Shown one piece after another: positions 6,121 to 44,071 of a DNA stretch of 64,000 nucleotides. Position numbers and translations under genes: made by a program. The stretch lies in the NCBI GenBank assembly GCA_016234855.1, contig JACRNO010000060.1, positions 9,595 to 73,594 of the forward strand, read 5' to 3'. Each line of letters opens with the position of its first letter. Position 1 is the first letter of the stretch. Under the pieces are notes generated by a model. That model did not search any database, was not told the DNA's origin, and saw only the letters and a program-made list of their open reading frames with translations. The stretch is from Deltaproteobacteria bacterium (GTDB lineage Bacteria > Desulfobacterota > GWC2-55-46).

Positions 6121-6164
6121 GGTCGTCGTTTACAGTCCGCCGCGCTCTTCAATGAAATGCGGGC

Positions 6165-16158: not shown

Positions 16159-16214
16159 GGCCTTTGTCCTTAATACTTAAAATTGTTTGATAACGGCATA
16201 GCCAGGAGACACGA

Positions 16215-20524: not shown

Positions 20525-20587
20525 CTCCTTTCAAGAGAGACCGAGCAAGACCCGTCTCCACGGTATTGGGTCTATTTTAACCCGTAA

Positions 20588-20654
20588 GGACAGTGGTTAG
20601 TGATTAGTATCCACTATCCATTGTCCACTATCCACTAACCACTGTCCACTGTCC
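20588..20654. repeat. Stutter hairpin S2 (CCACTATCC-unit arms)
   Basis: GGACAGTGGTTAGTG...ATCCACTATCCATTGTCCACTATCCACTAACCACTGTCCACTGTCC, with a 15-bp stem GGACAGTGGTTAGTG/CACTAACCACTGTCC. Abuts the pilB stop codon, between pilB and pilT. Confidence 0.6.
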
Positions 20655-28515: not shown

Positions 28516-28545
28516 ACCCGCCGCCTGCTGCGCGCTTTCTCTGTG

Positions 28546-28692
28546 CCGTCAGGAGTTTCCTCCTGACGGCGGTACCCGGCGGATGGCAGGAGGAAACTCC
28601 CGCCATCACACTAATTTTCAGTCCCGTCAGGAGTTTCCTCCTGACGGCGGTGCCCGGCATATGGCAGGAGGAAACTCCCGCCATCACATTAA
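28546..28692. repeat. Two 69-bp direct repeats (78-bp period), each a double hairpin of the GTCAGGAG family (H2)
   Basis: CCGTCAGGAGTTTCCTCCTGACGGCGGT(A/G)CCCGGC(GG/AT)ATGGCAGGAGGAAACTCCCGCCATCACA(C/T)TAA at 28546-28614 and 28624-28692. About 94% identical. Confidence 0.7.
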
Positions 28693-28930: not shown

Positions 28931-30982
28931 TTGAAGATAAAGCATAAATTCCTCGCCGTATTTATCGTACTCATCCTCCTGTCGCTCATAGCAACGAGCT
29001 ACGTCAACTTCTCCATCACAGAAGACGCGGTAGTGCAAAACGCGCTCAGGTCGATGAGCAACGACATCACGCTCATCTCGGCCGACGTGGATGCATTCCA
29101 TGAAAAGGCCAAGAGCGAACTCGTATTCGGGATAGAATACCCCGTGTTCAAGGAATACTTTTCGCTGAGCGAGACGAGGGCCGGGAAGAAATACGACAAG
29201 AACAACGTCCTTCAATTCAGCCCCGCCCAAAAGAGGCTTAAAGACAAACTCGACGCATGGACGCTTTTCATACAGAGCAAATTCCCCATCGCCGAGACAT
29301 GCCTCATCGACGCCCACGGCCAGGAACACACAAGGATAACCTACGGCAAGACCGCCGAGGCCGACGACTACTCGCACGACGAGAGCGCGGCGCCTTTCTT
29401 TGCCCCAACGCTCAAGCTCGCCAAAGGTGAGGTCTACGTCCAATCGCCGTATATGTCCGCGGACGCAAAGAGATGGGTCTTCGCCTATACGTCTCCGATT
29501 GTCCTTGACGACGGCACCAAACCGGCCTTCTACCACTTCGAGATACCGCTTGAATACTTTCAAAAACTCCTCGAAGGCAAGCACTCGGGCAGAACCCTTG
29601 TCATAGACCAATCCGGCCTCATAATCGCGGACAGCAGAAATAAGATAGATACCGTTCTTAAGCAGACCGGCAATCCCAAGGGCGGCGAAGAGAGGCTCAA
29701 GGACTATCTACCCGCCGTCGGCGGCATATCCGGTGACGCAAAATTCGCGAATCTTATAGACAAAATGCTGGCGGGTTCCGAAGGGACCGGCGTCTTTGCC
29801 GGCGACAACGAGGATATGTATCTCGCCTATAAAAAATTGTCGACCTTCGGCTGGAGGGTCGTGCAGATAAAATCCTACTCCGAGCTTCTCGAAGGCTCGT
29901 CATCGCTCGGGGCCATTAAACAGACGATTGCCGTCAGCGCGGTCATCGCCGTGATTGCGGCCATAATCATCACGTTCATCGTCTCGAACAGGATAACCAA
30001 GCCTCTCCTTGCGCTAACGAACGCCGCCCGGCACGTGGCCGAGGGAGACCTGAGCGTCAATCTGCCCACGATAACATCGAGGGACGAAGTCGCAAGCCTC
30101 CAATACGCCATGCAGAACATGATGGACAACCTCAAAAAGATGATTTCCGAGATCGAGGGCATCTCCAACCTTGTAGACGAGGCAAGCGTTGAAATAAAGG
30201 CCAACACCGTGAACATGGCCAACGGGATGGAGGACCAGGCCAACAAGTCAACGCAGATAGCCACCGCCTCGGAAGAGATGTCCGTCACCATCAACGAGAT
30301 AGCGCGCAACACGACGTCCATAACCGAGACCGCCGTAACGGCGACAGCGCTCGCCCACAACGGCGAAGGTATCGTCGCAAAATCCGTTGAAGAGGTCAAA
30401 ACGATTGCCGTGATGGTCGAAGACCTCGCTCAAAACATCAAGACGCTCGGCGGCCGCTCGGAGGAGATAGGCAACATCATCGACGTGATAAACGAAATAG
30501 CCGAGCAGACGAACCTGCTCGCCCTGAACGCGGCAATAGAGGCCGCGCGGGCCGGAGAACAGGGCCGCGGGTTCGCCGTAGTCGCCGACGAGGTAAGAAG
30601 GCTCTCGGAGAGGACGGCCAAGTCAACGCTTCAGATAGACGGGATGGTAAAGGCCATTCAGAGCGAGGTCCAATCCGCCGTAAAGGCCATGTCCGAGGGG
30701 ACAAAAAAAGCCGGGGCCGGGGTCAGGCTCTCATTCGAGGCCGGAAAGGCGCTGGGCGAGATAGTAGAGAGCGTGAAAGAGCTTCACGTAAAGGTCGAAC
30801 AGATCGCCACCGCTACGAACCAGCTCTCCAACGTCTCTGAGCAGATAAGCACGGACATAGGGATGGTTGCATCCGTATCAAAAGACACGAAAGACGGCAC
30901 GGAGATAGTAATCGGCTCGGCCTCGAAACTCACGGAACTTTCCAAGACCCTTCAAAGCGCCCTCTACCGTTTCAAGCTATAA
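28931..30982 (+). CDS. Methyl-accepting chemotaxis protein with periplasmic Cache-like sensor domain
   Basis: 683 aa. TM1, ~270-aa periplasmic domain, TM2, HAMP, and the conserved MA signalling domain ([35 protein letters not shown]). TTG start. Confidence 0.85.
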
Positions 30983-30989
30983 TCAAAGT

Positions 30990-31240
30990 CAAAGCCTTTT
31001 GTCATTCCCGAGGTCTTAGTCGGGAATCCAGTACGCATGAAGATAGAAAAAACTGGATTCCCGCCGGAGACACGCGGGAATGACGTATATCCGTAGCTCA
31101 GGCCAACAGGTCTGATACTGCGCGTCCAGCGCCCGTTGTTCAGGGCTAAACCCTGAGCGACACAAAATGAAATGCGTGTAGTCCAGACAGGCAGTCTGAG
31201 CCTGCGCTACTACAACGGAACGTAATTAATCAGGACTTCC
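30990..31240. repeat. One-ended MITE-related mosaic element
   Basis: Right TIR TAATTAATCAGGACTTCC at 31223-31240. Internal modules: GTCATTCCCGAGG...GGATTCCCGCC...CGCGGGAATGAC (shared with 60600-60690), CAGGGCTAAACCCTGAG and CAGGCAGTCTGAGCCTGC hairpins. No left TIR seen. Confidence 0.5.
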
Positions 31241-31323
31241 CTAACGCCCGGCTTCAACCGCGCAGGTTTCCAACCGCTCCTGCGGCGGCAGGCCGCGGTG
31301 GAATGCATGCCGGAAAGTTCGCG

Positions 31324-32415
31324 CTAAACCTTAACGGGCGTGGCGGGCCTCGGCAGGCTCGGCAGATGAAAGCGCATGGTGACGACCGTTCCCTTGCCCG
31401 GTGTGCTCTCGACGGTTATCTCGCCGCCGTGGTCCTGGATTATCCTGTAGGCGATGGTCAGGCCGAGTCCCGCGCCCTGGAACTTCGAGGTCTGAAACGG
31501 GTTGAATATCGTGCGCAGGTCGTCTTTGCCCATGCCGCAGCCGTTATCGCTGACGACAAGCAGCATGGTGTTGTCAAAGGTGGGTTTTGTCTCTATCTTT
31601 ATCTCGCCCTTCTTTTCGATTGCCTCCACCGAGTTCTGCAGGACATTGAAGACGGCCACGCGAAGATTGCCCGCATCCATGTCCATGGGCGGAGGCTGGG
31701 GCATCAGCTCGGTCTTTATGGTTATCTCCTTGCCCTCGTTATCTACAAACTCCCCGGCGTCCCGCACGGCCCCGGCGATGACGTTGTTTATATCCCCTTT
31801 GACGAGCGTGGAGACGAGTATCGTCTTGTACTCGTCAACCCTGTGAAGCATGCGCTCCAAGCGCTCGACCGACTTTATGATGCGCTCGGCATACTCCCTG
31901 TGCTGAGGGTCCGTCTCGTGCTCGTAGAGCCTTCGCGCCATGCCGCCTATGGCGGTCAGCGGGTTACGCACCTCGTGGGCGATGCCGTCAACCATCTCGC
32001 CGAGAGCGGCCATCTTCTCGGTCTCGCGCAGCTTCGTCTGAAGGGCGCGCATCCTCAAGAGAGACTTGACGCGCGCCGCGACCTCCTGCAGGCTGTATGG
32101 CTTGCTGATATAGTCCTCCGCCCCGACCTCAAGACCGAGGACCTTGTCCTCGACCTCGGCCTTGCCGGTGAGCATGATGACCGGCAGATAGCGGGTCTCC
32201 TCCCTTGACTTCAATCGGCGCAGCGTCTCATAGCCGTCCATCCTCGGCATCATGACGTCAAGGATGATAAGGTCGGGCGCGAATATCGGCACCTTCTGCA
32301 GTGCCTCTATCCCGTCTCTGGCCTTCTCAACCTCGTAGCCTACCCGCTCGAACTTCGCGCTAAGGAGCACCAGATTGACATCCTCGTCGTCCACTATGAG
32401 AATCCTCGGCCTCAT
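31324..32415 (-). CDS. Hybrid response-regulator/histidine kinase (REC-HisKA-HATPase_c)
   Basis: N-terminal receiver domain (ILIVDDEDVNL...DLIILDVMMPRMDG), HisKA (GIAHEVRNPLTAI) and HATPase_c. Start overlaps the upstream TPR lipoprotein gene by 4 nt. Confidence 0.8.
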   Translation of the reverse strand: MRPRILIVDDEDVNLVLLSAKFERVGYEVEKARDGIEALQKVPIFAPDLIILDVMMPRMDGYETLRRLKSREETRYLPVIMLTGKAEVEDKVLGLEVGAEDYISKPYSLQEVAARVKSLLRMRALQTKLRETEKMAALGEMVDGIAHEVRNPLTAIGGMARRLYEHETDPQHREYAERIIKSVERLERMLHRVDEYKTILVSTLVKGDINNVIAGAVRDAGEFVDNEGKEITIKTELMPQPPPMDMDAGNLRVAVFNVLQNSVEAIEKKGEIKIETKPTFDNTMLLVVSDNGCGMGKDDLRTIFNPFQTSKFQGAGLGLTIAYRIIQDHGGEITVESTPGKGTVVTMRFHLPSLPRPATPVKV

Positions 32416-33344
32416 CTCGCACCCATCCCTGACAAAGCATCCCTCAACTTCCGATAAAAAACGCCCTTATCCATGTTACCGGCGGCCTCGTTGATTGAAA
32501 TAAGTCCGTCCAGGGCGAAGGCCGCCTCCCTCGCCGTGCCGGAAGCGCTCGCCACCGCATAAAGCCTGTTGAGCGAGAATAACGCATCTTCTGTACGCCC
32601 GATCTTCATCTGTAGAGCCGATATCGAGACAAGGTCGGCCGCAAGCCTTGAGTTGTCCCCTGCCTCGCGGGACGTCTCGTAGGCGCGCTGGTAATAATCG
32701 AGCGCGGGGGCGTCGCTGCCTTCGCGGATATCCGCCTCGGCCAGCGCCCTGTACGAGTTCGCCGTCTCCGGCGCGTCGAGCGCACCCGCGTTCAACCTGA
32801 GCGCGTCAACAAGGACGGACTTCGCCGCGGCCGTCTTGCCTGAGGCGACGAGTATCGCCGCCTTGAGGTTCAGCCGGCCGCCGCTCTTCACGCCGAGACG
32901 TTGGTCAATGGCCAGGGCCGCCTCGATATGCGTCCACGCCGCGTCATGATTTCCGGTCAGGTAATCGGCCTTGGCAAGCGTTGCATAGGCCTCGGAAAGG
33001 TTCTTGTCGTCTTTGAGGAGCTGAGCGAGCGGGACAGCGTCCGCGAGCCAGGCCCGCGCCTCAATGTAGCCGCCAGTGACGACGGCGACCCTCGCAAGGT
33101 TGATAAGGTCAAGGAGTTCGCCCTCGCGGTTGTCAACCGACCTGTCAAGCCTGAGCGCTTCGGCAAAGGCCGAGCGCGCGCCGGCGTAATCGCCGATGCC
33201 GTAAGCATCCACGCCCGCAGCCTTCATCTCGTCGCCTTTTATATGTATGGGGGACGCCTTCTTTTTATCAACTGAGGCGCATCCTGTCAAGACCAAAAAT
33301 ATCGCGGCCAGCGCCAATATGGATATGTGATAACGACGCGTCAT
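32412..33344 (-). CDS. TPR-repeat lipoprotein
   Basis: Lipobox LVLTGC after a signal peptide, followed by multiple TPR-like Ala-rich repeats. Overlaps the mlaD-like stop by 4 nt. Confidence 0.65.
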   Translation of the reverse strand: MTRRYHISILALAAIFLVLTGCASVDKKKASPIHIKGDEMKAAGVDAYGIGDYAGARSAFAEALRLDRSVDNREGELLDLINLARVAVVTGGYIEARAWLADAVPLAQLLKDDKNLSEAYATLAKADYLTGNHDAAWTHIEAALAIDQRLGVKSGGRLNLKAAILVASGKTAAAKSVLVDALRLNAGALDAPETANSYRALAEADIREGSDAPALDYYQRAYETSREAGDNSRLAADLVSISALQMKIGRTEDALFSLNRLYAVASASGTAREAAFALDGLISINEAAGNMDKGVFYRKLRDALSGMGAR

Positions 33345-34351
33345 TTCACGGCCTCCGGCTTGACATCCGGCATCAATGTGCCAGGCGGATATGCGTCGAG
33401 CGGGAGAAGCTCAGGACGCTTTACCGGCTCCGGCGCTGTCAGGCTCCCTACCCACCCTTCCCTGACGCCCTTTATAAGCCCCTTGCCCTCGCTGGCGGCT
33501 GCGGAAGCGTCCGTGATAATCCCGCTTATCCGGGGGGTCTCCTTTGCAAGGGCGTTGCTGAGCGTCTTTACGTTCTCCATTGCATGGTCAAGCTTGCCCA
33601 CGGCCGCGTTGGCCTTCTCAAGTATGCCGTCCACCTTGCCGGCCGCTGGCGCAAGCCCCTCACTCAGGGTCTGGAGGTTCTTGCCTGTCTTGACAAACGA
33701 GTCCATGGCCGGCGTGGCGCGCGCGTCAAGGTTTACAACGAGTTGATTTATCGAGCCTACCGTCCGGTCTATGCCGCTGCGCGTCTGCCTCAGCTCGGCG
33801 GTAAACTCCCTGATATTCGTAATCGACGCCTTGAGGTCTCCCTTGGGGTCGTTGACGTAATGTATGATATCGGCGACCTCCTTGAGTATGGGCTTGGCCC
33901 CCTCTACAAGGGCCTCGATGCCGCCGCTCTTGACAAAGCCTATCTCGTCGCCGTCCTCCAGCACCCGGCCGCCGTCACCGCCGAGGGCTATCTCGATGAA
34001 CGCGTCGCCTATGAAACCCTCCTTGCCGAGCCCGGCCACGGAGTTGCTGCGCACCCACTTCTCGTACTTCTTGTTTATCTCAAGGGTCACCTTCACGCTG
34101 GCCGCCTCGGTCAGGTCGATCTTCTTCACCCTGCCAATCTTGAAGCCGGACAGCTCCACCGGCATGCCGACCTTGAACCCGGCCCCGCTCGCGGAGGTGA
34201 AGTATATCTGGTATTTATGCGTGAAGATATCCTTCTGTATGCCGATAAAGACGATGATGACGATTATCCCGGCCACGGCGGCCGCCACCAGCGCCCCTAT
34301 CTTGACCTCGAGGCCTTTAAACCTTTTATCTTTATCCGTATTCGCCGCCAT
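33341..34351 (-). CDS. mlaD: MCE/MlaD-family substrate-binding protein of ABC transporter
   Basis: N-terminal TM anchor plus MCE domain (IYFTSASGAGFKVGMPVELSGFKIGRVKKIDL) and a long helical C-terminal extension. Confidence 0.8.
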   Translation of the reverse strand: MAANTDKDKRFKGLEVKIGALVAAAVAGIIVIIVFIGIQKDIFTHKYQIYFTSASGAGFKVGMPVELSGFKIGRVKKIDLTEAASVKVTLEINKKYEKWVRSNSVAGLGKEGFIGDAFIEIALGGDGGRVLEDGDEIGFVKSGGIEALVEGAKPILKEVADIIHYVNDPKGDLKASITNIREFTAELRQTRSGIDRTVGSINQLVVNLDARATPAMDSFVKTGKNLQTLSEGLAPAAGKVDGILEKANAAVGKLDHAMENVKTLSNALAKETPRISGIITDASAAASEGKGLIKGVREGWVGSLTAPEPVKRPELLPLDAYPPGTLMPDVKPEAVK

Positions 34352-34396
34352 TTACAAAAACCCCTGTGGATTATACGCATAACGCGGAGCTGTCCG

Positions 34397-35086
34397 TCAC
34401 GCGGATGCGCCGTCTTCGGTTATCCTGTTGTTTTCTATCCGCAAGACCCTGTCGGGCTTGACAAAGGCCGCGTCGAACTTATCGGTTGACGTGACCAGCA
34501 GCAGCCTGGAGCCCGCGCCGGCGTGGTAACCCAATATCAACTCGAACAAACGCGCCCTCTCACCCGAGGTAAGCCCGTCGCCGAGGTTCTCGCAGATGAT
34601 TATCTCCGGGTCAAGGGCGAGAGAGCGCGCGATTGCAATCTGTTTTTTTGCATAGTTCGGCAGCGGCCCGGGCAGCTCCCACGGGTCTCCGGTAAACCCG
34701 GTGGAATCCAGAAGGCTGCGCGCCTTCTTCATGGCCTCGTCATGCGGCATATCCGTGTGATAAAGGAGCGGCAGCGCGCAGTTCTCGATGACCTTGAGGT
34801 TGCTTATCAGGGCGTTATCCTTGATGATGAGCCCAAGCCTGCAGCGCAGGGCGTTCAAGGCGCCGGCATCCAGCACTGAGATATCGTGACCGAGGACGCG
34901 GACAGTCCCCTTGTCCGGGCGCTCAACGCCCGCAAGCCAATTCAGGAAGAGGCTCTTGCCGGAGCCAAGCGGCGCCGCAAGGAAAACCTTCTCCCCGTTG
35001 CCGAGACTCAGATTAACGTCTTCGAATAGCAGGCGTCCGTCGCCGGAATAGGCGTATACGTTGGTTAACTCGACAAGCGCCGGCAC
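34397..35086 (-). CDS. MlaF-like ABC ATP-binding protein with degenerate catalytic motifs
   Basis: ABC fold in which Walker A is APLGSGKS, the signature LSGGQ is replaced by LPNYAK, and Walker B is IIICEN (no catalytic D-E). Probably non-hydrolytic. Confidence 0.7.
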   Translation of the reverse strand: MPALVELTNVYAYSGDGRLLFEDVNLSLGNGEKVFLAAPLGSGKSLFLNWLAGVERPDKGTVRVLGHDISVLDAGALNALRCRLGLIIKDNALISNLKVIENCALPLLYHTDMPHDEAMKKARSLLDSTGFTGDPWELPGPLPNYAKKQIAIARSLALDPEIIICENLGDGLTSGERARLFELILGYHAGAGSRLLLVTSTDKFDAAFVKPDRVLRIENNRITEDGASA

Positions 35087-35114
35087 ATATCACCGCCTGG
35101 CCGCGGCAGCGGCC

Positions 35115-35936
35115 TTACATGTAGAATATCGAAGTTATAACCGCGTCCAGAAAGAAAACGGATGTGAGGCTCCGCATGACGGCGCGGGTCGTCACCTGCG
35201 GTATCTGCGTTATGCTCTTTCTCACGAGAAGCCCCTGATACGAGCACACAGCGCCTATTATAAGTCCGAAGACGGCGCTCTTCAAGAGCGAAACGGCTAT
35301 GTCAAGCAGCCCCATCGCCTCAAGCAGGCTTGCGAAGTATGCGTGAAAGGTAACGCTGCCGCCGAAACCGGCCAGCACGAAACCGCCCACGATGGAGACG
35401 GCCTCGAAACAGAAGGTCAGCACCATGACGCTTACCGCCGTGCCGATTATCCTCGGGGCCACGAGATAACGCACAGGGTCTATGCCCATCAACTCAAGGG
35501 CGGTAAGCTCGCGGCCTATCTTCATGCTCCCGAGTTCCGCCGCAATGGCCGTGCCGCTCCGCGCTATCACTATGACGGCGGCAAAGACAGGCCCGGCCTC
35601 CCTGATAACGACCCAGACGAGAATCTTTCCGACAAGGGATTCGCCTCCGAGCCCCGGCAGTATCGAGAGCGCCTGGGCGACGACCACAAAACCGAGGATA
35701 AGGGCTATCCACGAGATGATGGGCACGGCCTCGTAACCGGTGAAGTAGACCTGCCTGAAAAAAACGTCCACGACCACCCTGCGCCCGCGCTTCATCCCTG
35801 TAAAGGCGGCGCTTAGCGCATAGATGATAAGGCTCCATACGGAGGAGACCTCTCTGGCTCGCGCAAGCGCGGCGCGCCCTATATATCCGAAGAGATTAAT
35901 CAAATGACAGACCCCAATCCGGTTGTTAAAAACCAA
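35115..35936 (-). CDS. mlaE: MlaE-family ABC transporter permease
   Basis: Polytopic membrane protein with MlaE motifs (QVYFTGYEAVPII...VVIREAGPVFAAVIVIARSGTAIAAELGSMKIGRELTALELMGIDP). Confidence 0.85.
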   Translation of the reverse strand: MVFNNRIGVCHLINLFGYIGRAALARAREVSSVWSLIIYALSAAFTGMKRGRRVVVDVFFRQVYFTGYEAVPIISWIALILGFVVVAQALSILPGLGGESLVGKILVWVVIREAGPVFAAVIVIARSGTAIAAELGSMKIGRELTALELMGIDPVRYLVAPRIIGTAVSVMVLTFCFEAVSIVGGFVLAGFGGSVTFHAYFASLLEAMGLLDIAVSLLKSAVFGLIIGAVCSYQGLLVRKSITQIPQVTTRAVMRSLTSVFFLDAVITSIFYM

Positions 35937-35999
35937 TCCCCCGTCACCCCGCTAATAGGGGCGCCGGGGGATAATCAGTATATGGGTGAGCGCCTCTGT

Positions 36000-36755
36000 C
36001 TAAAACTCGGCCTTTAGCGCGGCGTAAGGGCCTTTAAGCGTGAATGCGCCGAGGTTATTATCCTTCTCAAAATGGAACTTCAAGACCCTGTATCCGCCGG
36101 AGACCGAAAGAAACGCCGCCAGTTTCATGGTGACCGCCGCCTCGGCGTCATAGAGGTACTTGTCCGAAGCGACCTTGGCGCCCGTAGCCTCGGCGCTGAT
36201 GTTTATCAGATACGGCAGCCCGACCTGAAAGAGAAACCCCATTGTCGGCACCGCCACCTTCATCGACTTCGACTCGTTAAGCCCGGCGGACGGGGCGTTT
36301 ATGCCGGCGCTTATATCGAAATACTTTATATCGAAGATGTAGCCGGCCTTGTTGTTGAGCTTATCGACGGCGTCGTACTCCCATCCGAGACGATGGTAGT
36401 TCACCTTCAACTCGGACGTAACCGGGGTCGAGGCCGAATAGGTCTTGCCGTTAAAAACGACGCTCCTGGATATGGTCGCGGCAGCGTTCCACTTGAGCGG
36501 CACAAAGGAGTACCTTATCTTGTTGGAGGCGTCGCCGAGCGAAGCGCGCACCTCCCAGAATTTCTTCTTCTTCTCGAAACCAAGGTCGCCGACCGGATCC
36601 AAATTCGTGCCGTCGGAAGAGCCGTTGGATATCCTTATCTTGCTGTCGAAAGAGGTGAACCAGTACCTGCCCTCGACTGCTACAAGGGCCATGGCGTCCG
36701 AGGCGGCAAGAACAGCCATGACCGTCAGCAATAGGGTTATCAGAGTCTTCTTCAA
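36000..36755 (-). CDS. Putative outer-membrane beta-barrel protein
   Basis: TTG start at 36755 after an AGGAGG SD gives signal peptide MKKTLITLLLTVMAVLAASDAMA. Alternating amphipathic beta pattern and a C-terminal aromatic residue (…ALKAEF). The track ORF is extended to 36854. Confidence 0.6.
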   Translation of the reverse strand: MKKTLITLLLTVMAVLAASDAMALVAVEGRYWFTSFDSKIRISNGSSDGTNLDPVGDLGFEKKKKFWEVRASLGDASNKIRYSFVPLKWNAAATISRSVVFNGKTYSASTPVTSELKVNYHRLGWEYDAVDKLNNKAGYIFDIKYFDISAGINAPSAGLNESKSMKVAVPTMGFLFQVGLPYLINISAEATGAKVASDKYLYDAEAAVTMKLAAFLSVSGGYRVLKFHFEKDNNLGAFTLKGPYAALKAEF

Positions 36756-37017
36756 ACGTATGCCTCCTGAAGGATACAGGTAACGGCGGGGTTGGAAGAT
36801 ATCCGCCGTTCCTTCAACAACACCGCGCCAACACAGCTCGTCACTTTCGCCCACAGGTAAGAAGGCCGGGGCAGGCCTTAACCTGCCCCGGCCTGAAGGA
36901 CATTATCCGGTCTGATTCAGGAAAGACAAACACCCATGCCTCAATCAGCGCATCTGCCCAATGCCATTGCCGTTACAAAACTCCCCGCCGTTAAAAAAAA
37001 CAGAGCGGGAATTGAGC

Positions 37018-37860
37018 CTACTTGAGGACAAAGACGACCTTTGCGCCCTCAAGATAGTGGCTGTTCTGGTTCGACGTGAATATCGCGCTCGCGTCGTCCG
37101 GGCCGACCTCGACGTCGGTCGACTTGACGACCCCGCTTATCTTGACGACCGCCGGGTTTACCGCGCCGCGCTCGCCAAGCAGCGCCTTGGCCTTGCCCAC
37201 GTCATTCGTGTACTCGGCAGCGCCGCGCTCAACGAGGATATTCTGGGCGACCTTGGCCGGGTCGTATACGACCTCGCCGCTCTTTGTCATTACCCTGTTT
37301 ATAAGGGCCGGCTTGAACGGCTGCTCGCGCACGTCGAGTATCAGGCCGTCGTAATTGACCACAGCCGCAGGCGCGACAGGCGGCGCCATGTAAGGCGGGG
37401 CAGCCGAGGGCGCCATAAGCATCTGCGGCAATAGCGAGCCGACAAGGCCGTTGGAACCGGTCATGGGCATGGAGAGGTATACGATGGCAATCTCGCTTAC
37501 CGGGTCATAGACCTCTTTGACGACCTGCGCGCCCTTTACAAGGCCCTGTACCGTGGCCCTGATGGTGTCGGATGCCGCCGCAGCCGAGACGACGGTCGTC
37601 TCGCCGCTGATGGCTATGCCGTCAACCACCTCGGACAGCTCCCTTGCGGCCATTATCTTTGCGGCGCGCAGCGCCATAATCCTCTTCTGCGCGGGCGACA
37701 TCGGCCTGTCTGAGGGGGCCGCGCCCTCGCCCTTTACAACGAGCGCGCCGCTGACGAGCGCCTTGCCCGTGTCCCTGACCTCCTGCGGCATATCGGTTTG
37801 CGCCATAGCCGAGACGGCAAAAAGAAGAACGAATAACGGTATTAAAAGGAACTTTTTCAT
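37018..37860 (-). CDS. Secreted LPP20/FlgP-like domain protein
   Basis: Signal peptide MKKFLLIPLFVLLFAVSAMA. The region GKALVSG...AQKRIMALRAAKIMAARELSEVVDGIAISGETTV...ATVQGLVKGAQVV fits the LPP20-like pattern. Ala/Pro-rich linker and a C-terminal beta domain. Confidence 0.5.
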   Translation of the reverse strand: MKKFLLIPLFVLLFAVSAMAQTDMPQEVRDTGKALVSGALVVKGEGAAPSDRPMSPAQKRIMALRAAKIMAARELSEVVDGIAISGETTVVSAAAASDTIRATVQGLVKGAQVVKEVYDPVSEIAIVYLSMPMTGSNGLVGSLLPQMLMAPSAAPPYMAPPVAPAAVVNYDGLILDVREQPFKPALINRVMTKSGEVVYDPAKVAQNILVERGAAEYTNDVGKAKALLGERGAVNPAVVKISGVVKSTDVEVGPDDASAIFTSNQNSHYLEGAKVVFVLK

Positions 37861-38020
37861 CCATCGCCTCCTTGACAGTTAATTGCCCGCCCTATAAAAA
37901 AGCATGGGCGGCGGGATTCATGCTCCCCCTCATTTCAAAAAGAGAGGGCAAAACGCATCCCCTCTTTCAAGAGGGGAGGTTGATACTCCCCCCATTGAAA
38001 AAGGGGGGCCGGGGGGGATT

Positions 38021-39247
38021 TTAATTAATGTTTATCCTGTGCCTTAAAACCCTTATCGCGAGTATGGCCTCCGCGCCGTCAACGACCGCATCGGGGCGGA
38101 AGTCGCCGGAAAGCTCGGTCTCCATGATGCTGCGCGTCGTCACGCTCATGACGGCGTTATACCATGCGGCGGAAGGCGCGACGTCCGGGAACGGAGACTT
38201 GTCCTGCCCGAAATAGGCGCTGGCAAGCTTCTCGTCGCCCGTGAGCTTTATAAGGACGTCTTCGAGCACCATGGCGAACTGCTTGCGCGTGACCGGCTCA
38301 TCCGGCCTGAACAGATACGCCCGCGTGGTCTCGTCATATACAGGCTCAAGCCCGCGCACGCCCCACTTCATCAGGGTCAGTATCTCGCCCTTGAACGGGC
38401 TTGCCATCACGTCGGCAGGCGTAAAATCGGCCTTCATCTTTGCCAGGTTCGATTCGGACGGGATGCGCCCGGCGAAGAGCTTGTCGACCTTGAGCTCGTC
38501 GACCAGGAGTGCCGCCATGTCGGCGCGCGTCACTGACTCCTGCGTCGCTATGGTCTTACCCACGTCGCCGACGGTGATGCCGGCCATTGCCCTTACTATC
38601 TTGTCGGTCTTGTTCCAGTACTTCTCGGCAAGCGGCGCCCACCTGCTCGAGACCTTCTCGTTTATGACGTCAGCGAACCTGTCCCTTGCGGACTGGAAGA
38701 CCTTGCCCTCAAGATAGGCTCTGCCCATGTAATACATCGCCGCTTCCCTGCCGTCGTAGTAGAGGAGCTTTCTATCGTCCACCTTGAGCTTCATCGCCGC
38801 CTTGTAGTGGTCTTCGGCGTCGTTGAGCCACTTGCCGGGCTTAAGAAGCATGTCGCTGCGTATGGCCGCGACGTGATACGCAAACGCGTCCTCGTCGGTA
38901 TTTGCATTCTTCTCCGACGTCTTGAGCGACTCGGCAGCCTTGTCAGCGTCGACCTTCATATAAGCCGCGTCCTTCTGCGCCTTATACTTGGCAACGGCCT
39001 TCTCCGAGTTCACGATACCGAGGCCCGAATAGGCCGGGCCGAAGCCCTGTTCGCAGGTAATCGCCCTCTGGAACTTGCCTTCAGCCTCGTCTACATTGCC
39101 CTGCTCGACCAGCTCCATGCCCTTGAGATAATGATGCTGCGGGTTATCCTCCGGGGTAATACATTCGGACACGTGCTTGGCGCAGCCGGCCGATATCAGA
39201 AAAAGCAGCGCCAGGCCTATCAACGGGAACCTACCAATCTTAGTCAC
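38021..39247 (-). CDS. Lipoprotein with TPR-like N-terminal region and two SLH-like C-terminal repeats
   Basis: GTG start at 39247 after a GGAGG SD gives MTKIGRFPLIGLALLFLISAGC (lipobox). C-terminal FPDVAPSAAWYNAVMSV...VTRKQFAMVL and ESVTRADMAALLVDEL resemble S-layer-homology repeats. The SLH assignment is tentative. Confidence 0.5.
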   Translation of the reverse strand: MTKIGRFPLIGLALLFLISAGCAKHVSECITPEDNPQHHYLKGMELVEQGNVDEAEGKFQRAITCEQGFGPAYSGLGIVNSEKAVAKYKAQKDAAYMKVDADKAAESLKTSEKNANTDEDAFAYHVAAIRSDMLLKPGKWLNDAEDHYKAAMKLKVDDRKLLYYDGREAAMYYMGRAYLEGKVFQSARDRFADVINEKVSSRWAPLAEKYWNKTDKIVRAMAGITVGDVGKTIATQESVTRADMAALLVDELKVDKLFAGRIPSESNLAKMKADFTPADVMASPFKGEILTLMKWGVRGLEPVYDETTRAYLFRPDEPVTRKQFAMVLEDVLIKLTGDEKLASAYFGQDKSPFPDVAPSAAWYNAVMSVTTRSIMETELSGDFRPDAVVDGAEAILAIRVLRHRININ

Positions 39248-39282
39248 GTTTGCAACCTCCTTTATTTGATTACAACCTGAGA

Positions 39283-39370
39283 CTTGTATGTGGGATGTAG
39301 TATGTGGGATGTGGCAAAGTCTTCTATGCTTTCCGCCTTCCACTTCCCACATCCTACATCCCACCTCCCT
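39283..39370. repeat. Stutter hairpin S3 (TGTGGGATGT-unit arms)
   Basis: TGTGGGATGTAGTATGTGGGATGTGG...CCACTTCCCACATCCTACATCCCACC, about 26-bp imperfect arms. Intercistronic between the CsgG-like gene and the SLH-like lipoprotein gene. Confidence 0.6.
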
Positions 39371-39384
39371 TTTTTGCCTGAAAA

Positions 39385-40350
39385 CTACCGCGACTGCCGT
39401 ATCACGTCCCCTGCCTGAAAACCGCTCCCCGCGCGCACGGACGCCTCGGATATCTTCTCGTTCTGATGCGCCGTAAGCGTTATCTCGCCTATCTTCTTCT
39501 CGCGCTTGCCTATGACCCTTCCGGTATCCGGGTCAACGAGGTCCTGACCGGGACGGAGCACGTCGAATACCGAACCTTCCGGCAGACGGGACCTCATGCC
39601 GGCCTTGATTATTATGACGGAGCCGTCAACGGCAAGCACCCTGCCCTGGAACGGCTGCTGGTTGAGTTTTTCCACCATCCTCGTCATGGCCTTGGTAAGC
39701 GCATCGCGCAGCGCGCCCTCGCGAAGTCCCACGTCGGCCGTGGACTTTGAACCGAGACCCAGCACGCCCCCTGTCTTTTTCCTGTATTCGCCCATACCGG
39801 ATTCGGCGACGAGGCTCCTGCCGGTGGCCACGTCAACAAGGGCGTAGTCCACCTGTACGCGCGCAATCTGGGTCTTGCTCTGAGCGACCAGCACGTTGGA
39901 GCCTTCCTCAAGCTCGGAGTATGATGTGATGGAGCCTGATATCCTGTAATCCACCGACTCCATGCCCTCGGCCGCGTTCTTCAGCCCGGTCTTTACTGCC
40001 CCGGTCTGCTGCAGGGCTATCATCTTCTCCTGTGCGCGCATATCGTCGTCCGTAAGGCTTATCGGCTCGAGGCCGGACTTCTTCACGATGGTGCGCAGGA
40101 TATCGGTCGCGGCCTCGCCTATGCCAAGCACCCTGCCGGGCGTCTTGTTGGCGAACGTAAGTATCGCCACGTTATACTGCGGCCCGTTGTACTGCGCGCC
40201 CGCCTCTTCAAGTTTTCCGGTCTGACCGGTGACGCTGACGTCCTCCTTTACCGCTCCGGTTATGGTGGGCGAGCATGAGGCCGTTGAGATGAGCATTGCC
40301 GAGAGCACGGCCAGGAGGCCAAGATTCATCGATAACTTTCTTTTAGCCAT
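39385..40350 (-). CDS. CsgG-family outer-membrane lipoprotein (curli-secretion-channel-like)
   Basis: Lipobox LISTASCS. Motifs YNVAILTFANKT, ATDILRTIVKKSGLEPIS, VDYRISGSITSY and QVDYALVDVATGRSL parallel E. coli CsgG (KIFVSVYNIQDETG, LVTALKDS, ANIMVEGSIIGYE, NLRVVNVSTGEIL). Confidence 0.7.
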   Translation of the reverse strand: MAKRKLSMNLGLLAVLSAMLISTASCSPTITGAVKEDVSVTGQTGKLEEAGAQYNGPQYNVAILTFANKTPGRVLGIGEAATDILRTIVKKSGLEPISLTDDDMRAQEKMIALQQTGAVKTGLKNAAEGMESVDYRISGSITSYSELEEGSNVLVAQSKTQIARVQVDYALVDVATGRSLVAESGMGEYRKKTGGVLGLGSKSTADVGLREGALRDALTKAMTRMVEKLNQQPFQGRVLAVDGSVIIIKAGMRSRLPEGSVFDVLRPGQDLVDPDTGRVIGKREKKIGEITLTAHQNEKISEASVRAGSGFQAGDVIRQSR

Positions 40351-40509
40351 ATTTTCACCCCTTTAAATAATAACCCGGTTTTAACGGCCCGGACGGTCAG
40401 TGCCACCGTTTTAACGTAGCGCAGGCCTTCAGGCCTGCATCTGTAAAGTGAGAACAGCCCACCAAAACTACCAGTGAACCGAAATGATGGACAGCGCTAC
40501 CCTGCTTGA

Positions 40510-41289
40510 CTAACCGCCTGTCATCTCCCCTCTCGGGAAATCAGACATTATCCTGTCGAGCATCTCTGACGATTCAAAATACAAATGGACGCCGAAGGCC
40601 TGGGTTACAAGCTGCTCGCCGAGCGAGAAGAGGGCGGCGTTGCCAACGGACTTTTCATGATGGCTGTACGAGGTCTTCCAATCAGACAGGCCCGGCACGC
40701 CTGCAAGCCCAGGTATCGCACTGGATATCTCGTCGTCGCTCCTGTCCGTCACCTGGGAGAGCGCGGCTATGCCCGCGCCTATCTCGCCCGCGCTGTGTAT
40801 CTCGCTCTTGACCCCTGCGGCGCGCGACCAGACGACCGCGCCGGTCTTCACATCGACGAGCTTGAAACCGGCCCTGACCTTGTTGACGTTATAGACGCCC
40901 GTCGTTATCGTGTTAAAGTCCAGCAGATACCCGTACAGGAGATAATCAACCCCGAGTTCCGCGCCTATGGCCTGAGGGGTGGTCAGGTCGAGCTGAGCCC
41001 CGAGCGTTATGCCCATGCGGTCGGCCAGTATCCGGTCGACGTCCGCAAGCGGCAGGTTCCTGTAGCGGGCCTTGCGCATCCTTTCAATTGCCTGCTCGCG
41101 CACCATCTGCGGGCCGTCCACGTCGTTTGTCGCGTTATAGACGGGCAAGACGGCTACGGTGCGAACGAAACGTGCCTCATCCGGGTTGCCCTTGAACGCG
41201 GCACAGGCGCTCAAAACGGACGCCATGACACAGATTAGCAGGATATAAAAGGCGCCTGGCCGCCGCCTTGAGACGCCTCTATCCGCCAT
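40510..41289 (-). CDS. DUF799/GNA1162-like lipoprotein (CsgG-partner family)
   Basis: Lipobox SVLSAC. VAVLPVYNATND...GVDYLLYGYLLDF...GFKLVDVKTGAVVW fits the lipoprotein family that is found next to CsgG-like genes in many Proteobacteria. Assignment is from memory of the family pattern. Confidence 0.5.
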   Translation of the reverse strand: MADRGVSRRRPGAFYILLICVMASVLSACAAFKGNPDEARFVRTVAVLPVYNATNDVDGPQMVREQAIERMRKARYRNLPLADVDRILADRMGITLGAQLDLTTPQAIGAELGVDYLLYGYLLDFNTITTGVYNVNKVRAGFKLVDVKTGAVVWSRAAGVKSEIHSAGEIGAGIAALSQVTDRSDDEISSAIPGLAGVPGLSDWKTSYSHHEKSVGNAALFSLGEQLVTQAFGVHLYFESSEMLDRIMSDFPRGEMTGG

Positions 41290-41310
41290 CTACTCCCCTT
41301 GACAAAACAC

Positions 41311-41459
41311 TTAAGGAACCTCTGATTAATTCATTTCTTTTCTGTCATTCTGAGGAGCGAAGCGACGAAGAATCTCGTAACTTGTTGAATTTCTTAGAAG
41401 CGAGATTCTTCGCTTCGCTCAGAATGACACCATTGTGGAATTAATCAGAGGTTCCTTAA
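41311..41459. mobile_element. MITE-like element copy 6 (compact 149-bp archetype)
   Basis: Perfect TIRs TTAAGGAACCTCTGATTAATTC (41311-41332) and GAATTAATCAGAGGTTCCTTAA (41438-41459). Internal palindrome GTCATTCTGAGGAGCGAAGCGACGAAGAATCTCGTAACTTG...CGAGATTCTTCGCTTCGCTCAGAATGACA. Confidence 0.7.
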
Positions 41460-41532
41460 TAATATTAAAGCGTTACATCATGCGTCTTCTGATTGTTTCG
41501 CAGCAAGGCTCGGCGCGCCGCTGCCCCAGGCC

Positions 41533-42741
41533 TTACTGCCCCTGCATCACCGCGTCTATGGTATTCGCGGACGTGGACAATATCCTGATCCTCCCGTTCG
41601 GAAGCCTTGCAAGGTCGTCGGCAATCTGCTGGGCCGGGACCTTCACGTCAAGGTCGAATACGGCTGTGCCGTCTTCAAAACGCCGCTGGTATATATTGAC
41701 CACGCCTCTGATGTTTTTCTTGAGAATATTCTTGAAATCAGCCGTCTTCGTGTAATCGGCAAGGCCGGCAATCCTTATCGTGACCGTGTTGCCGCGTGTC
41801 CATTTGGCGATAATCTGCTCTATCAGCTTGTCCGCCGCCTCGGACGCGGCCCTTGCGGATGCGTCCACACCGCCGGAAGTCTTCGATATGTGCCTTGACG
41901 CCCCGTGCCCCTTTGCGCTGGCAAGCACCGTGCCATCATCCACGCGTATCACGTCAACGGAGATATCGGCAAGGTACGAGCCGATAGTTGAACCTGCAAG
42001 CCTCATCCCCTCGGTCACTACGGATTTTCCCTTGACCACGAGTTCGGCGTTCAGGCCGCGGCCAATCCTGCGCGCCCTGTCCCTGGAAAGCCCGGATGAC
42101 GAACCTCCAGGCACATCGGGCGAGGCTGAGATATCCACGACCTGAAACCCCTTGTTCAAAAAGACCTCTTTCATGGACGACTCAGCAGCCGGCATCTCGG
42201 AATCGTCGCCTTCGACAACGCGCAGGGTATCGTTATCAAGGCCAAGCCCCTTTTCAGTTATAAGAAAGAGTATGCGCGGCTTTTCGACCTTGACCATCAG
42301 GAGGCCCAACGCGTCGAGGTCGTTTCTTATCTCCCCCATAGCCACGGTCGCATGGACCGTAACCTGATAGGTATCCTGCACCTGTCCTTCCCTGAGGACG
42401 TTATAATCGCGCACGTAACCCTGCGTCTTCGTATATACGTTGTCGTTAAGCACCTGATAGTCCTGCACCATAGTCTCGGACGATACAAGCAGGCCCACGG
42501 CCTGCTCAACGGCCTTACGCAAGGCGTCGTTTACAGCCGCATCCCTCGCAACCAGGGTATTGCCGCCGGAGATGACGGCATAGCCCGTGGCATCGACCGT
42601 CTTAAGTTCGGGCGCATCCACGGCAAAAGCCGCCCCGCCAACCGCCATAAAAAAGAGAACGATGAGCGCGGCCGCAAGGACGCGAGCATGTGTTAACATC
42701 GCGGCGAAGTAACTGGTCTGAGCCATAGTCATATTATACAC
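41533..42741 (-). CDS. Secreted protein with two or three LPP20/FlgP-like repeats
   Basis: Signal peptide. Repeated modules of the form G(Y/S)AVISGG...ARDAAVNDALRKAVEQAVG...V...D, with a second at ELVVKGKSVVTEGMRLAGSTIGSYLADISVDVIRVDDG. 402 aa, no enzymatic motifs. Confidence 0.45.
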   Translation of the reverse strand: MYNMTMAQTSYFAAMLTHARVLAAALIVLFFMAVGGAAFAVDAPELKTVDATGYAVISGGNTLVARDAAVNDALRKAVEQAVGLLVSSETMVQDYQVLNDNVYTKTQGYVRDYNVLREGQVQDTYQVTVHATVAMGEIRNDLDALGLLMVKVEKPRILFLITEKGLGLDNDTLRVVEGDDSEMPAAESSMKEVFLNKGFQVVDISASPDVPGGSSSGLSRDRARRIGRGLNAELVVKGKSVVTEGMRLAGSTIGSYLADISVDVIRVDDGTVLASAKGHGASRHISKTSGGVDASARAASEAADKLIEQIIAKWTRGNTVTIRIAGLADYTKTADFKNILKKNIRGVVNIYQRRFEDGTAVFDLDVKVPAQQIADDLARLPNGRIRILSTSANTIDAVMQGQ

Positions 42742-42904
42742 CGTGTTGGATTGGTTTGCGCGGCCGGGACGTCAATTATTCACAAAAAAAAGCCGCAAGG
42801 GAAATCGTCTCTCATACGGATGGACAGCCTGTATTGCATATACCACAAACCACAGGCCAAGTCTATCTGAGAATGGGGGCGCAGGCAAGACCCGGCAGGG
42901 CCTC

Positions 42905-44071
42905 TCAGGGCCTGAAACCGTCCTTGATACGCCTTAACGTCTCAGGATTAAAGAGGATATCCAGCACCGTAAGCCCCAGGCCATTTACGCCTTCCATAAG
43001 CGCCCTGTGACCGTCAGGGGCGACGGTGGCGTCCGCAAACTCGCGGGTGTGGATATTTATACCTTCCCTGATGGGGATATGCGGGTGGATGGTGGGAACG
43101 ACCTGCGAGACGTTGCCGATATCCGACGAGCCGACGTGCGCCTCGGGCGGCTGAGGGTCTTCTTTAAGGCCAAGTTCGGCAAGCGCCCCCCTGTATACTT
43201 CGACAAAAGCCATGTTTATCTTCATGGGCGCGTTCATCTCGCCCTCTTCCTCGCACACGAGCCTGCACCCTGTGGCAAGGGCCGCGCCTTCGGCGCATTT
43301 TACGGCCTTGTCTCTGATTGTATAGAGCGCGGGCAGACTCCCTGCACGAACAAAGAACGCGGCAGAGGCCCTCTCAGGGATGATATTCGGCGCGCGCCCG
43401 CCGTCGGTTACTATGCCGTGGACGCGGATATCGCTTGCAAACTGCTGACGGAGCGCGTTGATGGAGTTAAATGTCTGGATTACCGCGTCAAGGGCGTTGA
43501 TTCCCTCTTCAGGATAGGCCGAGGCGTGGCTTGTGCGGCCAAGAAAGGTGAAGTTGAGCCTTATGAGGCCGAGGAAGTGCTTTACGATTGTGCGGCGCGA
43601 CGAGCCGTGCACCATCATGGCCGCGTCTATGCCCATAAAAAGCCCGGCCTTGAGCATCTCTACCTTGCCCTTGCCGAGTTCCTCGGCAGGGGTGCCCAAG
43701 ACGACGACCCTGCCGTGGTCAAACGGCTTTGGCAGTACGGAGGCAAGCGCGCAGGCCGCGCCGACCGAGGCCATGCCGGCTATGTTATGACCGCAGCCGT
43801 GGCCTATGCCGGGTAAAGCATCCATCTCGGCAAGCAGGGCAATGGACGGCGCGCCAGTGCCAAGGACGGCCCTGAACGCCGTCTCCATGCCCGCGACGCC
43901 GGACTCGACCGAGTAACCGGCCTTGGCCAGCATCCGCTGCATGGCCGCCGAGGTCTTATGCTCAAGAAGACCCGTCTCAGGGTTGGCGTGGAACTCGTCG
44001 CTTTGCGCCGTAATGGCCTGCCGAAGCGCGTCAGCGGCCTTTAAAAACCCGGTCTTGAGGTCGTCTCTCAT
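42905..44071 (-). CDS. M20-family amidohydrolase/peptidase
   Basis: GHGCGHNIAGMASVGAA and a downstream metal-ligand pattern fit M20D amidohydrolases (AbgB/hippurate hydrolase type). Start taken at the ATG at 44071 (MRDDLKTGFLK), because the track ORF N-terminus overlaps GTCAGGAG hairpins. Confidence 0.7.
   Translation of the reverse strand: MRDDLKTGFLKAADALRQAITAQSDEFHANPETGLLEHKTSAAMQRMLAKAGYSVESGVAGMETAFRAVLGTGAPSIALLAEMDALPGIGHGCGHNIAGMASVGAACALASVLPKPFDHGRVVVLGTPAEELGKGKVEMLKAGLFMGIDAAMMVHGSSRRTIVKHFLGLIRLNFTFLGRTSHASAYPEEGINALDAVIQTFNSINALRQQFASDIRVHGIVTDGGRAPNIIPERASAAFFVRAGSLPALYTIRDKAVKCAEGAALATGCRLVCEEEGEMNAPMKINMAFVEVYRGALAELGLKEDPQPPEAHVGSSDIGNVSQVVPTIHPHIPIREGINIHTREFADATVAPDGHRALMEGVNGLGLTVLDILFNPETLRRIKDGFRP

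Follow-up and report, generated by a model that had tools for sequence, protein, structure and literature searches.

A deltaproteobacterial MlaE-MCE operon with a conserved, degenerate nucleotide-binding domain as a candidate ATP-independent trans-envelope conduit

What can an MlaE-MCE lipid transport operon be doing when the ATPase encoded within it has lost its catalytic motifs? This question is raised by six consecutive minus-strand genes at positions 31324-36755 of a 64-kb stretch of DNA from a Deltaproteobacteria bacterium (contig JACRNO010000060.1), referred to here as the window. In order, they encode an outer-membrane (OM) beta-barrel protein, an MlaE-family permease, an MlaF-like nucleotide-binding domain (NBD) of the ATP-binding cassette (ABC) type, a protein with a single MCE domain, a TPR lipoprotein, and a kinase combining a receiver domain with a histidine kinase (REC-HK). 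A first-pass annotation made from the sequence had proposed this arrangement, and Pfam, NCBIfam and open reading frame checks returned the same gene order, strand and coordinates, as well as the predicted 4-nt overlaps between the last three genes, which take the form ATGA at both the MCE/TPR and the TPR/kinase junction. We estimate a probability of about one half that this operon encodes an ATP-independent conduit across the envelope, similar to the Mce and Mpc systems, in which the NBD would persist as a structural pseudo-ATPase. A literature search found no published account of an MlaE-MCE family with a pseudo-ATPase.

The window NBD was aligned with HMMER to mycobacterial MceG (8fed_G, E 1e-29) and to MlaF (7d06, 6z5u, 7ch8), and this alignment is ungapped around the motifs. 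Walker A reads APLGSGKS in place of canonical GPSGTGKS, with the first glycine changed to alanine and the general P-loop pattern [AG]x4GK[ST] still matched. The Q-loop, canonically LFQDGAL, is IIKDNAL (Gln to Lys); the signature, canonically ISGGM or LSGGM, is LPNYA; Walker B with the catalytic glutamate, canonically IILCDE, is IIICEN (Asp to Glu and Glu to Asn); the D-loop SGLD is DGLT; and the H-loop VTH is VTS (His to Ser). Four of five catalytic elements are lost. The first-pass annotation had named the Walker A sequence and LPNYAK in place of LSGGQ, both of which the alignment upholds. It had also described a Walker B without Asp-Glu, and here the motif is indeed altered and the catalytic glutamate has become asparagine, but one acidic residue stays. 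The losses it listed are real, but the list omitted those in the Q-loop, D-loop and H-loop. The NBD is therefore non-canonical by alignment, and the earlier expectation that hydrolysis is unlikely gains support: judged by its motifs, ATP hydrolysis by the window NBD is very unlikely, and the MlaF-like protein would be a conserved pseudo-ATPase. Against the NCBIfam model for MlaF (NF008809) it scores 70.5 bits, compared with a cut-off of 441. In addition, the alignment shows that it is without the C-terminal extension of about 40 residues present in canonical MlaF-type relatives, an extension that, in a 2020 eLife paper on MlaFB, is said to mediate a handshake in MlaF and to bind MlaB.

These departures extend well beyond the window. 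A search of 5.8 billion proteins with the window NBD yielded 32 clusters scoring 149-458 bits, below which the scores drop abruptly to those of canonical MlaF-like proteins, at most 116 bits; this group, termed clade 1, is represented by 33 aligned sequences from uncultured Deltaproteobacteria/Thermodesulfobacteriota. An S-G-G signature is found in 0 of the 33, and so is the catalytic glutamate, whose place is taken by N, R, D or S. The H-loop histidine is likewise missing at the aligned position from all 33, with a histidine one residue downstream in P0011 (TAHG). The Q-loop glutamine is retained in eight members, the Walker A lysine in 28 and the Walker A Ser/Thr in 16. Because the same deviations run through all 33 members, they are not the product of chance or sequencing error. 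The most conserved part of the protein is a nearly invariant block directly after the Q-loop, residues 93-110 (ISNLKVIEN..LPLLYH; family form SNLKV[IW]EN..LPL.YH), which, from general knowledge of ABC structures, we take to line the groove in which the coupling helix of the permease transmembrane domain makes contact.

The fold has outlasted the motifs. Both the RecA-like and the helical subdomain are present (PF00005, AlphaFold2, Foldseek), and an AlphaFold2 model built with the family alignment reached a mean predicted local distance difference test score (pLDDT) of 93.2 and a predicted template-modelling score of 0.90. Foldseek superposed this model on MlaF, MceG and LolD with template-modelling scores of 0.87-0.90 and root-mean-square deviations of 1.7-2.5 Å. 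The operon is under purifying selection, with dN/dS values, measured against a contig 86% identical in protein, of 0.16 for the NBD, 0.16 for the MCE protein, 0.12 for MlaE, 0.22 for the TPR lipoprotein and 0.11 for the REC-HK. Taken alone, the unusual motifs might have pointed to a decaying pseudogene or to an assembly or sequencing artefact, but that explanation, whose chances we regard as negligible, is refuted by the intact reading frame, the dN/dS of 0.16, the confident model and the presence of the same substitutions in independent samples, namely the 33 clade-1 sequences and 24 sequences of a sister clade. The NBD gene encodes a folded, selected and, judged by its motifs, non-catalytic protein.

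The sister clade emerged from the permease. In searches with the window MlaE, which is 100% identical to P0121 from an NCBI metagenome-assembled genome (MAG) named 'Deltaproteobacteria bacterium', clade-1 permeases rank first and are followed by a distinct group that includes Geomonas sp. Red32. In two loci of this group, mlaE is followed by genes for an NBD of 212-218 aa, a needle-type MCE protein and a TPR protein. The NBDs retain SNLKVWEN..LPL.YH and an LSxY.KR remnant, and lack Walker A (reading, for example, ASRQEECD) as well as the catalytic glutamate and the histidine; across the 24 sequences, the Walker A lysine occurs in two and an S-G-G signature in none. When the Geomonas protein was used as query, about 48 clusters preceded a sharp fall to canonical proteins, the sources being the Geomonas isolates Red32 and Red276 and MAGs of Geobacter, Geobacteraceae and Thermodesulfovibrionales. 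Overall, the two clades amount to about 100 protein clusters or more from Thermodesulfobacteriota-like MAGs, Geobacterales and Thermodesulfovibrionales, and the hallmark SNLK[VA].EN is carried by 101 of the proteins retrieved. A profile search covered 1.84 billion representatives; beyond about rank 10 its results are dominated by two-domain ABC proteins with summed scores, which leaves its E-value counts uninformative on family size, and only hallmark-bearing matches among those listed were counted. Of 148 newly retrieved representatives, 25 carried the hallmark among the matches listed, and both a canonical Walker A (G..G.GK[ST]) and an LSGG-type signature are missing from every one of these 25. 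The pattern LSGG[QEMK] was matched in five hallmark proteins and was rejected as a signature in those inspected (P0006, P0008, P0021 and P0390), where the match precedes Walker A or lies near the D-loop.

The loss of Walker A from the sister clade argues that nucleotide binding is dispensable in the family. The MlaE partners, which are not degenerate, are mutual closest relatives across the two clades in the database; the simplest reading for both would therefore be that catalysis was lost a single time, long ago, on the basis of hit ranking rather than of a tree. One alternative is a nucleotide-gated switch, in which the pseudo-NBD would bind ATP without turnover and so set a long-lived open or closed state of MlaE, much as degenerate sites do in heterodimeric ABC proteins. 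Catalytic E-to-Q mutants of ABC proteins trap ATP, and the E-to-N change in the window NBD resembles them; the P-loop pattern can be matched by the window protein and, in clade 1, by no more than 16 of 33 members, those with both the lysine and the Ser/Thr of Walker A, and Walker B retains a Glu or Asp. On the other hand, the signature that closes the ATP sandwich in trans is lost in all members, and the Walker A lysine or Ser/Thr is gone from many clade-1 and nearly all sister-clade members, so that ATP binding is not conserved, and we give the switch long odds.

A transporter that is still driven by ATP is less probable again, and we consider it very doubtful. Such a system would depend either on non-canonical catalysis in the NBD or on a canonical ATPase encoded elsewhere, for which MceG would be the model, shared orphan ATPases being known in mycobacteria (PMC9947336). 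Against this, all loci that were read have an NBD gene between those for MlaE and the MCE protein, and the docking segment is the most conserved part of the protein, suggesting that the NBD itself probably occupies the sites on MlaE. No second ABC NBD was found in the 64-kb window by a six-frame motif scan, and none was called within 10 kb of those clade-1 loci whose gene calls were read. Even a heterodimer with a canonical partner would have both composite sites defective, given an NBD that lacks the catalytic and the signature halves. In degenerate-site ABC transporters such as PatAB, TM287/288 and CFTR, changes in the catalytic glutamate, H-loop or signature abolish hydrolysis at a site, and a paper on PatAB reportedly describes this effect for its degenerate nucleotide site. 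Those transporters keep one consensus site, whereas here a single NBD gene, whose product presumably forms a homodimer on the MlaE dimer, is degenerate in both halves, so that no consensus site can form.

What kind of MCE system, then, surrounds this NBD? The MlaE and MCE proteins, encoded in one operon, both score under their NCBIfam equivalog cut-offs. The MCE protein aligns with the mycobacterial Mce family model TIGR00996 over residues 20-256 (E 6e-25, under cut-off) and with Mce1B (8fed_B) over residues 12-257; its resemblance to Mce1A-F-type proteins takes in the MCE domain and about 130 residues of the helical region, and its homologues give faint Helical_needle matches. Compared with the MlaFEDB complexes of E. 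coli, P. aeruginosa and A. baumannii, the window has the MlaE-family permease, the MCE protein with an N-terminal transmembrane helix and the MlaF-fold NBD, encoded by three adjacent genes as in mla operons, here in the order E-F-D. It differs in an NBD without the Q-loop glutamine, signature, catalytic glutamate, H-loop histidine and C-terminal extension, in an MCE protein of double the length with a predicted helical region at the C-terminus, and in the added OM barrel, TPR lipoprotein and REC-HK. MlaA, MlaB (STAS) and MlaC were not found by Pfam among the main open reading frames of the window or in the gene calls of homologous loci, which agrees with the earlier statement that mlaC and mlaB are missing. 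None of active MlaF, MlaB, MlaC and MlaA, which mark the canonical Mla pathway, was found here, and the window system lies outside that pathway; the proposal that it does not perform canonical retrograde transport is supported at the level of gene content and motifs.

Tunnels formed by MCE proteins without an ABC ATPase are known from PqiABC and LetAB (YebST); in the former, the C-terminal part of PqiB is a helical needle, and the lipoprotein PqiC is its partner at the OM. The window system is not of the Pqi/Let type, as its permease belongs to the wrong family: PqiABC and LetAB have an inner-membrane partner of the PqiA/LetA family and several MCE domains per chain, whereas here there is MlaE, a single MCE domain (to which PqiB gives a weak match, over one domain) and an ABC architecture with a fossil NBD. 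A comparison with Pqi is also drawn in passages of the study on Brucella Mpc (PMC12436622). The Brucella mpcEFDA genes, as presented there, follow the same order of permease, NBD, MCE protein and lipoprotein, so that the lipoprotein gene likewise comes after the MCE gene, and passages on Veillonella treat bridges made of elongated MlaD, independent of MlaABC, as widespread and perhaps ancestral (PMC10665443). Like the window, Mpc and Veillonella MlaEFD are reduced to a permease, an NBD and an MCE protein without MlaABC, the MCE protein being elongated there and predicted to be so here, and the passages propose that each system connects the inner with the outer membrane (PMC12436622, PMC10665443). 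The same passages report no degenerate NBD; in addition, the Veillonella MlaD bears its own OM barrel domain, whereas the barrel here is a separate gene, and the lipoprotein here, unlike that of Mpc, is a TPR protein. In sequence, the NBD and the extended MCE protein are matched best by MceG and Mce1B, respectively, of the mycobacterial Mce1 and Mce4 systems with MceG (PDB 8FED), and those systems likewise have no periplasmic shuttle and a needle-type MCE, the type predicted here. In them, however, six different MCE proteins work with two YrbE permeases, and the active ATPase, whose gene lies elsewhere, needs its Walker B for function (PMC9947336), against one MCE gene, one permease gene and a dead NBD inside the operon here. 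The lack of mlaC and mlaB, which had been read as a sign of repurposing, is what is expected of a needle-type MCE system resembling Mce1, Mpc or Veillonella, and provides no evidence for repurposing.

The conduit that we favour would be built as follows. An MlaE permease dimer would sit in the inner membrane and carry a hexameric ring of single MCE domains, which a long helical needle would extend over the periplasm to a distal end formed by the OM beta-barrel and the OM TPR lipoprotein. On the cytoplasmic side, the pseudo-ATPase would keep the NBD fold and the groove for coupling to the permease without hydrolysis, and across the family without a need for ATP binding, in a structural role, as a clamp on MlaE or a factor in its assembly. 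The conduit would then move or equilibrate phospholipid, or some other hydrophobic substrate, between the membranes without ATP, as in PqiAB and LetAB, with the REC-HK as a regulatory accessory. Work on E. coli MlaFEDB carrying the Walker A-dead MlaF K47A reported spontaneous bidirectional phospholipid transfer, with ATP imposing only the retrograde direction (bioRxiv 10.1101/2021.05.25.445566), and Mce1 and Mce4 depend on MceG to be stable (PMC9947336).

Several observations weigh against such a conduit. Walker B mutants of M. tuberculosis MceG fail to stabilise Mce1 and Mce4 (PMC9947336), and because they do, a purely structural role for a dead NBD has no guaranteed precedent. With its P-loop matching [AG]x4GK[ST], the window NBD may itself bind ATP. 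The predicted needle is drawn from hidden Markov model and PDB sequence matches, and a single-sequence AlphaFold2 model of the MCE protein places a helix at residues 143-300 with a pLDDT of 44, which makes it a tentative indication of secondary structure only. Finally, homologues of ring-forming lipoproteins are conserved upstream of the operon, and a simple lipid conduit does not explain them.

These upstream genes belong to a larger conserved unit. Synteny of the six genes, which the first-pass annotation had presented as the unit, is conserved in about 25 species-level genomes, and gene calls show the same six in distant clade-1 loci with 37-47% NBD identity; the OM barrel gene sits upstream of mlaE in clade-1 loci, and the TPR lipoprotein gene comes after the MCE gene in both clades. 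The six-gene description is nevertheless incomplete, since clade-1 loci carry five further genes upstream on the same strand, for a FlgT_N-like, a GNA1162-like, a CsgG-like and an SLH/TPR protein and a protein of about 280 aa. The window has all five at 37018-42741, and the full conserved unit therefore comprises 11 genes at 31324-42741 (Table 1). By tblastn of 40 loci, all 11 genes are present in 11 loci and stand in the same order in ten, the FlgT_N-like gene having moved in the remaining one (L021); most other loci end at contig edges. The flanking genes (M20 peptidase; NadB, SLT and CDP-OH transferase) are common to about half of the loci and differ in more distant ones, and because they are shared by only about half, the 11-gene block outlasts general collinearity. 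In one locus (L004), the genes from the CsgG-like gene through mlaE are spaced by 9-91 nt.

Table 1. Genes of the conserved 11-gene block in the window, from upstream to downstream
Feature	Coordinates	Strand	Evidence and remarks
FlgT_N-like periplasmic protein	41533-42741	minus	Sec signal peptide (AFA/VD); PF16548 FlgT_N E 3e-8, 34.4 bits, exceeds cut-off; FlgP chains matched weakly; gene 1 of the 11-gene block; syntenic in clade-1 loci
GNA1162-like / LpoB-like lipoprotein	40510-41289	minus	Lipobox LSAC; PF05643 E 5e-11; PF13036 E 5e-5; syntenic
CsgG-like lipoprotein	39385-40350	minus	PF03783 CsgG E 5e-5, 23.2 bits (cut-off 20.8); best conserved of the upstream genes, 53-81% identity in clade-1 loci
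TPR protein with C-terminal SLH domain	38021-39364	minus	PF00395 SLH E 6e-15; BamD-like TPR match weak; syntenic; probably a lipoprotein with its real start near 39247 (VTKIGRF...ISAGC)
Secreted protein, about 280 aa in relatives, with FlgP-like N-terminal domain (residues 41-119)	37018-37860	minus	PDB sequence search: chains of the flagellar basal-disk lipoprotein FlgP, 9hmf_C, 9yfg, 8z5n_2 and 9yds at E 9e-8 to 2.5e-6; no match in Pfam scan; syntenic
Outer-membrane beta-barrel protein	36000-36755	minus	TTG start with AGGAGG site upstream; signal peptide ending AMA; C-terminal Phe
MlaE-family ABC permease	35115-35903	minus	262 aa from TTG at 35903; PF02405 E 7e-61
Predicted pseudo-ATPase, ABC NBD fold	34397-35086	minus	PF00005 E 3e-14; Q-loop, signature, catalytic Glu, D-loop and H-loop lost; permease-docking segment ISNLKVIENCALPLLYH conserved
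Single-MCE-domain protein	33341-34351	minus	N-terminal transmembrane helix; PF02470 E 3e-16, residues 46-122; predicted long helical C-terminal region of about 155 residues (needle type)
TPR lipoprotein	32412-33344	minus	LTGC lipobox; TPR_12 E 9e-15
Soluble REC-HisKA-HATPase_c kinase	31324-32415	minus	PF00072 E 3e-29; PF00512 E 4e-14; PF02518 E 6e-25

The OM barrel protein has no Pfam match and aligns with TIGR04219 over its full length (residues 35-284 on 1-234 of 234; E 2e-12, 46.9 bits, under the cut-off of 105), so that by sequence it is a relative of that family and not a member. The TPR lipoprotein matched no known MCE partner family in Pfam and NCBIfam scans, and its gene is translationally coupled to the MCE gene through the ATGA overlap.

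The products of the five upstream genes are homologous to OM-associated proteins that form rings in flagellar motors and in curli secretion, and flagellar genes are absent nearby. FlgP- and FlgT-type families form large periplasmic rings in flagellar motors. The block could accordingly belong to a larger envelope machine, in which CsgG-, GNA1162-, FlgT_N- and FlgP-like proteins would form a ring or cage at the OM, the SLH protein would tie it to peptidoglycan, and MlaE, the pseudo-NBD and the MCE protein would serve as an inner-membrane anchor with transport secondary or absent. The persistence and order of the 11 genes in more distant loci whose flanks differ, the short gaps from the CsgG-like gene to mlaE in L004, and the FlgP homology at E of about 1e-7 together with a FlgT_N match above cut-off all speak for such a machine, while the sister clade has the core (MlaE, pseudo-NBD, MCE and TPR) without the upstream block, and in the window a strong hairpin parts the two halves. 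On balance we judge it distinctly improbable. The hairpin, at 36863-36894 on the minus strand between the FlgP-like and OM barrel genes, is a perfect 14-bp GC-rich stem followed by UUCUU, with a folding energy of -35.3 kcal/mol (z -4.4 against shuffles); it was not called by a terminator scan, its T-run being weak. It may be a terminator, an attenuator or an RNA stabiliser, and the block could be one transcript or two. A consensus scan gave ten promoter-like sites against 4.7 expected, none clearly placed, no sigma54 pattern was found in the intergenic regions of the cluster, and an Rfam search of 30900-43000 returned no match.

At the other end of the operon, the REC-HK has no transmembrane segment and no sensor domain, and its D53 and its H, N, G1 and G2 boxes are intact; the translation shows DD9-10, D53, T83 and K105 in the receiver and HEVRNP, NLxxNSVEA, DNGCGM and GAGLGL in the kinase. 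It is among the best-conserved proteins of the block (54-93% identity), and, among the 27 clade-1 loci that reach far enough, 24 have its gene following that for the TPR protein. Of the others, L026 and L028 have no signalling gene after the TPR gene. In L030, a gene for an NtrC-type protein (REC, sigma54 activator, HTH) occupies the REC-HK position at 7696-9081, 10 nt past the TPR lipoprotein gene. The sister clade is without the REC-HK, and two of its four loci (L038 and L039) have no adjoining signalling gene, the other two having some: a gene for a metallo-beta-lactamase resembling class-II cAMP phosphodiesterases lies directly upstream of mlaE in both L036 (9215-13586, Geomonas sp. Red32) and L037 (9228-14428), with a FecR-like gene in the vicinity of each and, at L036, a CHASE2-guanylate-cyclase gene in the vicinity as well. 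Between the REC-HK gene and nadB, the window also has a dCache-HAMP-MCP chemoreceptor gene at 28931-30982 on the plus strand; in related genomes (L001, L005 and L009) nadB follows the REC-HK gene directly, and the chemoreceptor gene thus appears to be a lineage-specific insertion.

These neighbours raise the possibility that the system is a sensor and not a transporter. MlaE, the pseudo-NBD and the MCE protein would then report the state of lipid or envelope in the periplasm and OM, and the pseudo-NBD would pass the signal to the REC-HK, in the manner of transporter-dependent kinases such as BceAB-BceS and PstB/PhoU-PhoR. A kinase with its catalytic boxes and no transmembrane or sensor domain would suit this role, as would its translational coupling to the TPR and MCE genes, its position after the TPR gene and its high conservation, the NtrC-type activator at the kinase position in L030, and, in half of the four sister-clade loci, the phosphodiesterase-like gene before mlaE and the FecR and/or CHASE2-cyclase genes in its neighbourhood. 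Against it stand the two clade-1 and two sister-clade loci that lack an adjacent signalling gene, and an N-terminal REC domain that suggests phosphotransfer from a different kinase as the source of its input; contact between NBD and kinase is conjecture only. Moreover, because the degenerate NBD is common to clades and loci without the REC-HK, the loss of catalysis is probably older than, and independent of, the association with the kinase. We consider a sensor unlikely, if less so than the alternatives above. The earlier suggestion of repurposing to signalling through the hybrid kinase is not established and has no direct support, as the degenerate NBD also occurs in the sister clade and in three clade-1 loci, all without the kinase. 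The signalling genes are recurrent neighbours and not obligatory partners.

Sensor, switch and envelope machine are not mutually exclusive with the ATP-independent conduit. One combination, to which we would assign a rather small chance, is that the lineage gave up hydrolysis long ago and that, in the clade of the window, the fossil NBD now provides the output on the cytoplasmic side of a ringed lipid sensor, and not a pump, that spans the envelope, built with the FlgP-, FlgT_N-, CsgG- and GNA1162-like ring proteins and the SLH anchor and reporting to the REC-HK.

Other features of the window lie outside the block. At 28537-28692, in the gap between nadB and the chemoreceptor gene, two tandem 78-nt units (91% identical) with an internal palindrome (GGAGTTTCCTCCTG / CAGGAGGAAACTCC) look like a small structured intergenic repeat and yield spurious open reading frames on both strands. 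A perfect sigma54 promoter consensus, TGGCACGGGCATTGCA, is found at 14439-14454 on the minus strand, about 75 nt ahead of the gene for a pilin-like (N_methyl) protein at 13894-14364; the consensus adjoins PilS/PilR-type genes (14749-17930) and pilC, pilT and pilB (17948-22358), and a PilQ secretin is encoded at 60757-63639. A complete rod-shape cluster (mreB, mreC, mreD, PBP2 and rodA, followed by pgpA, cinA and a LigT-like gene) occupies 2580-8192, a housekeeping context that is consistent with a chromosomal and not a mobile location.

In databases, the NBDs of this family are named ATP-binding protein, MlaF or hypothetical, and the first two of these labels are an annotation issue for proteins of this kind. 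Ring proteins of the FlgP-, FlgT_N- and CsgG-like kinds and two-component proteins have a conserved link to the core, and this points to an envelope machine, so far uncharacterised, in bacteria that have received little study. How lipid traffic by Mla and other MCE systems is directed and powered is a matter of debate, in particular the role of ATP hydrolysis as against spontaneous transfer. A conserved family that pairs MlaE with an NBD predicted not to hydrolyse ATP, and in the sister clade predicted to be unable to bind it, would amount to an evolutionary knock-out. It would imply that the MlaE-MCE core is useful without ATP and that the coupling-helix groove and the remodelled signature loop are kept for non-catalytic reasons, and, as the sister clade is present in cultivated Geomonas strains, this is open to experimental test.

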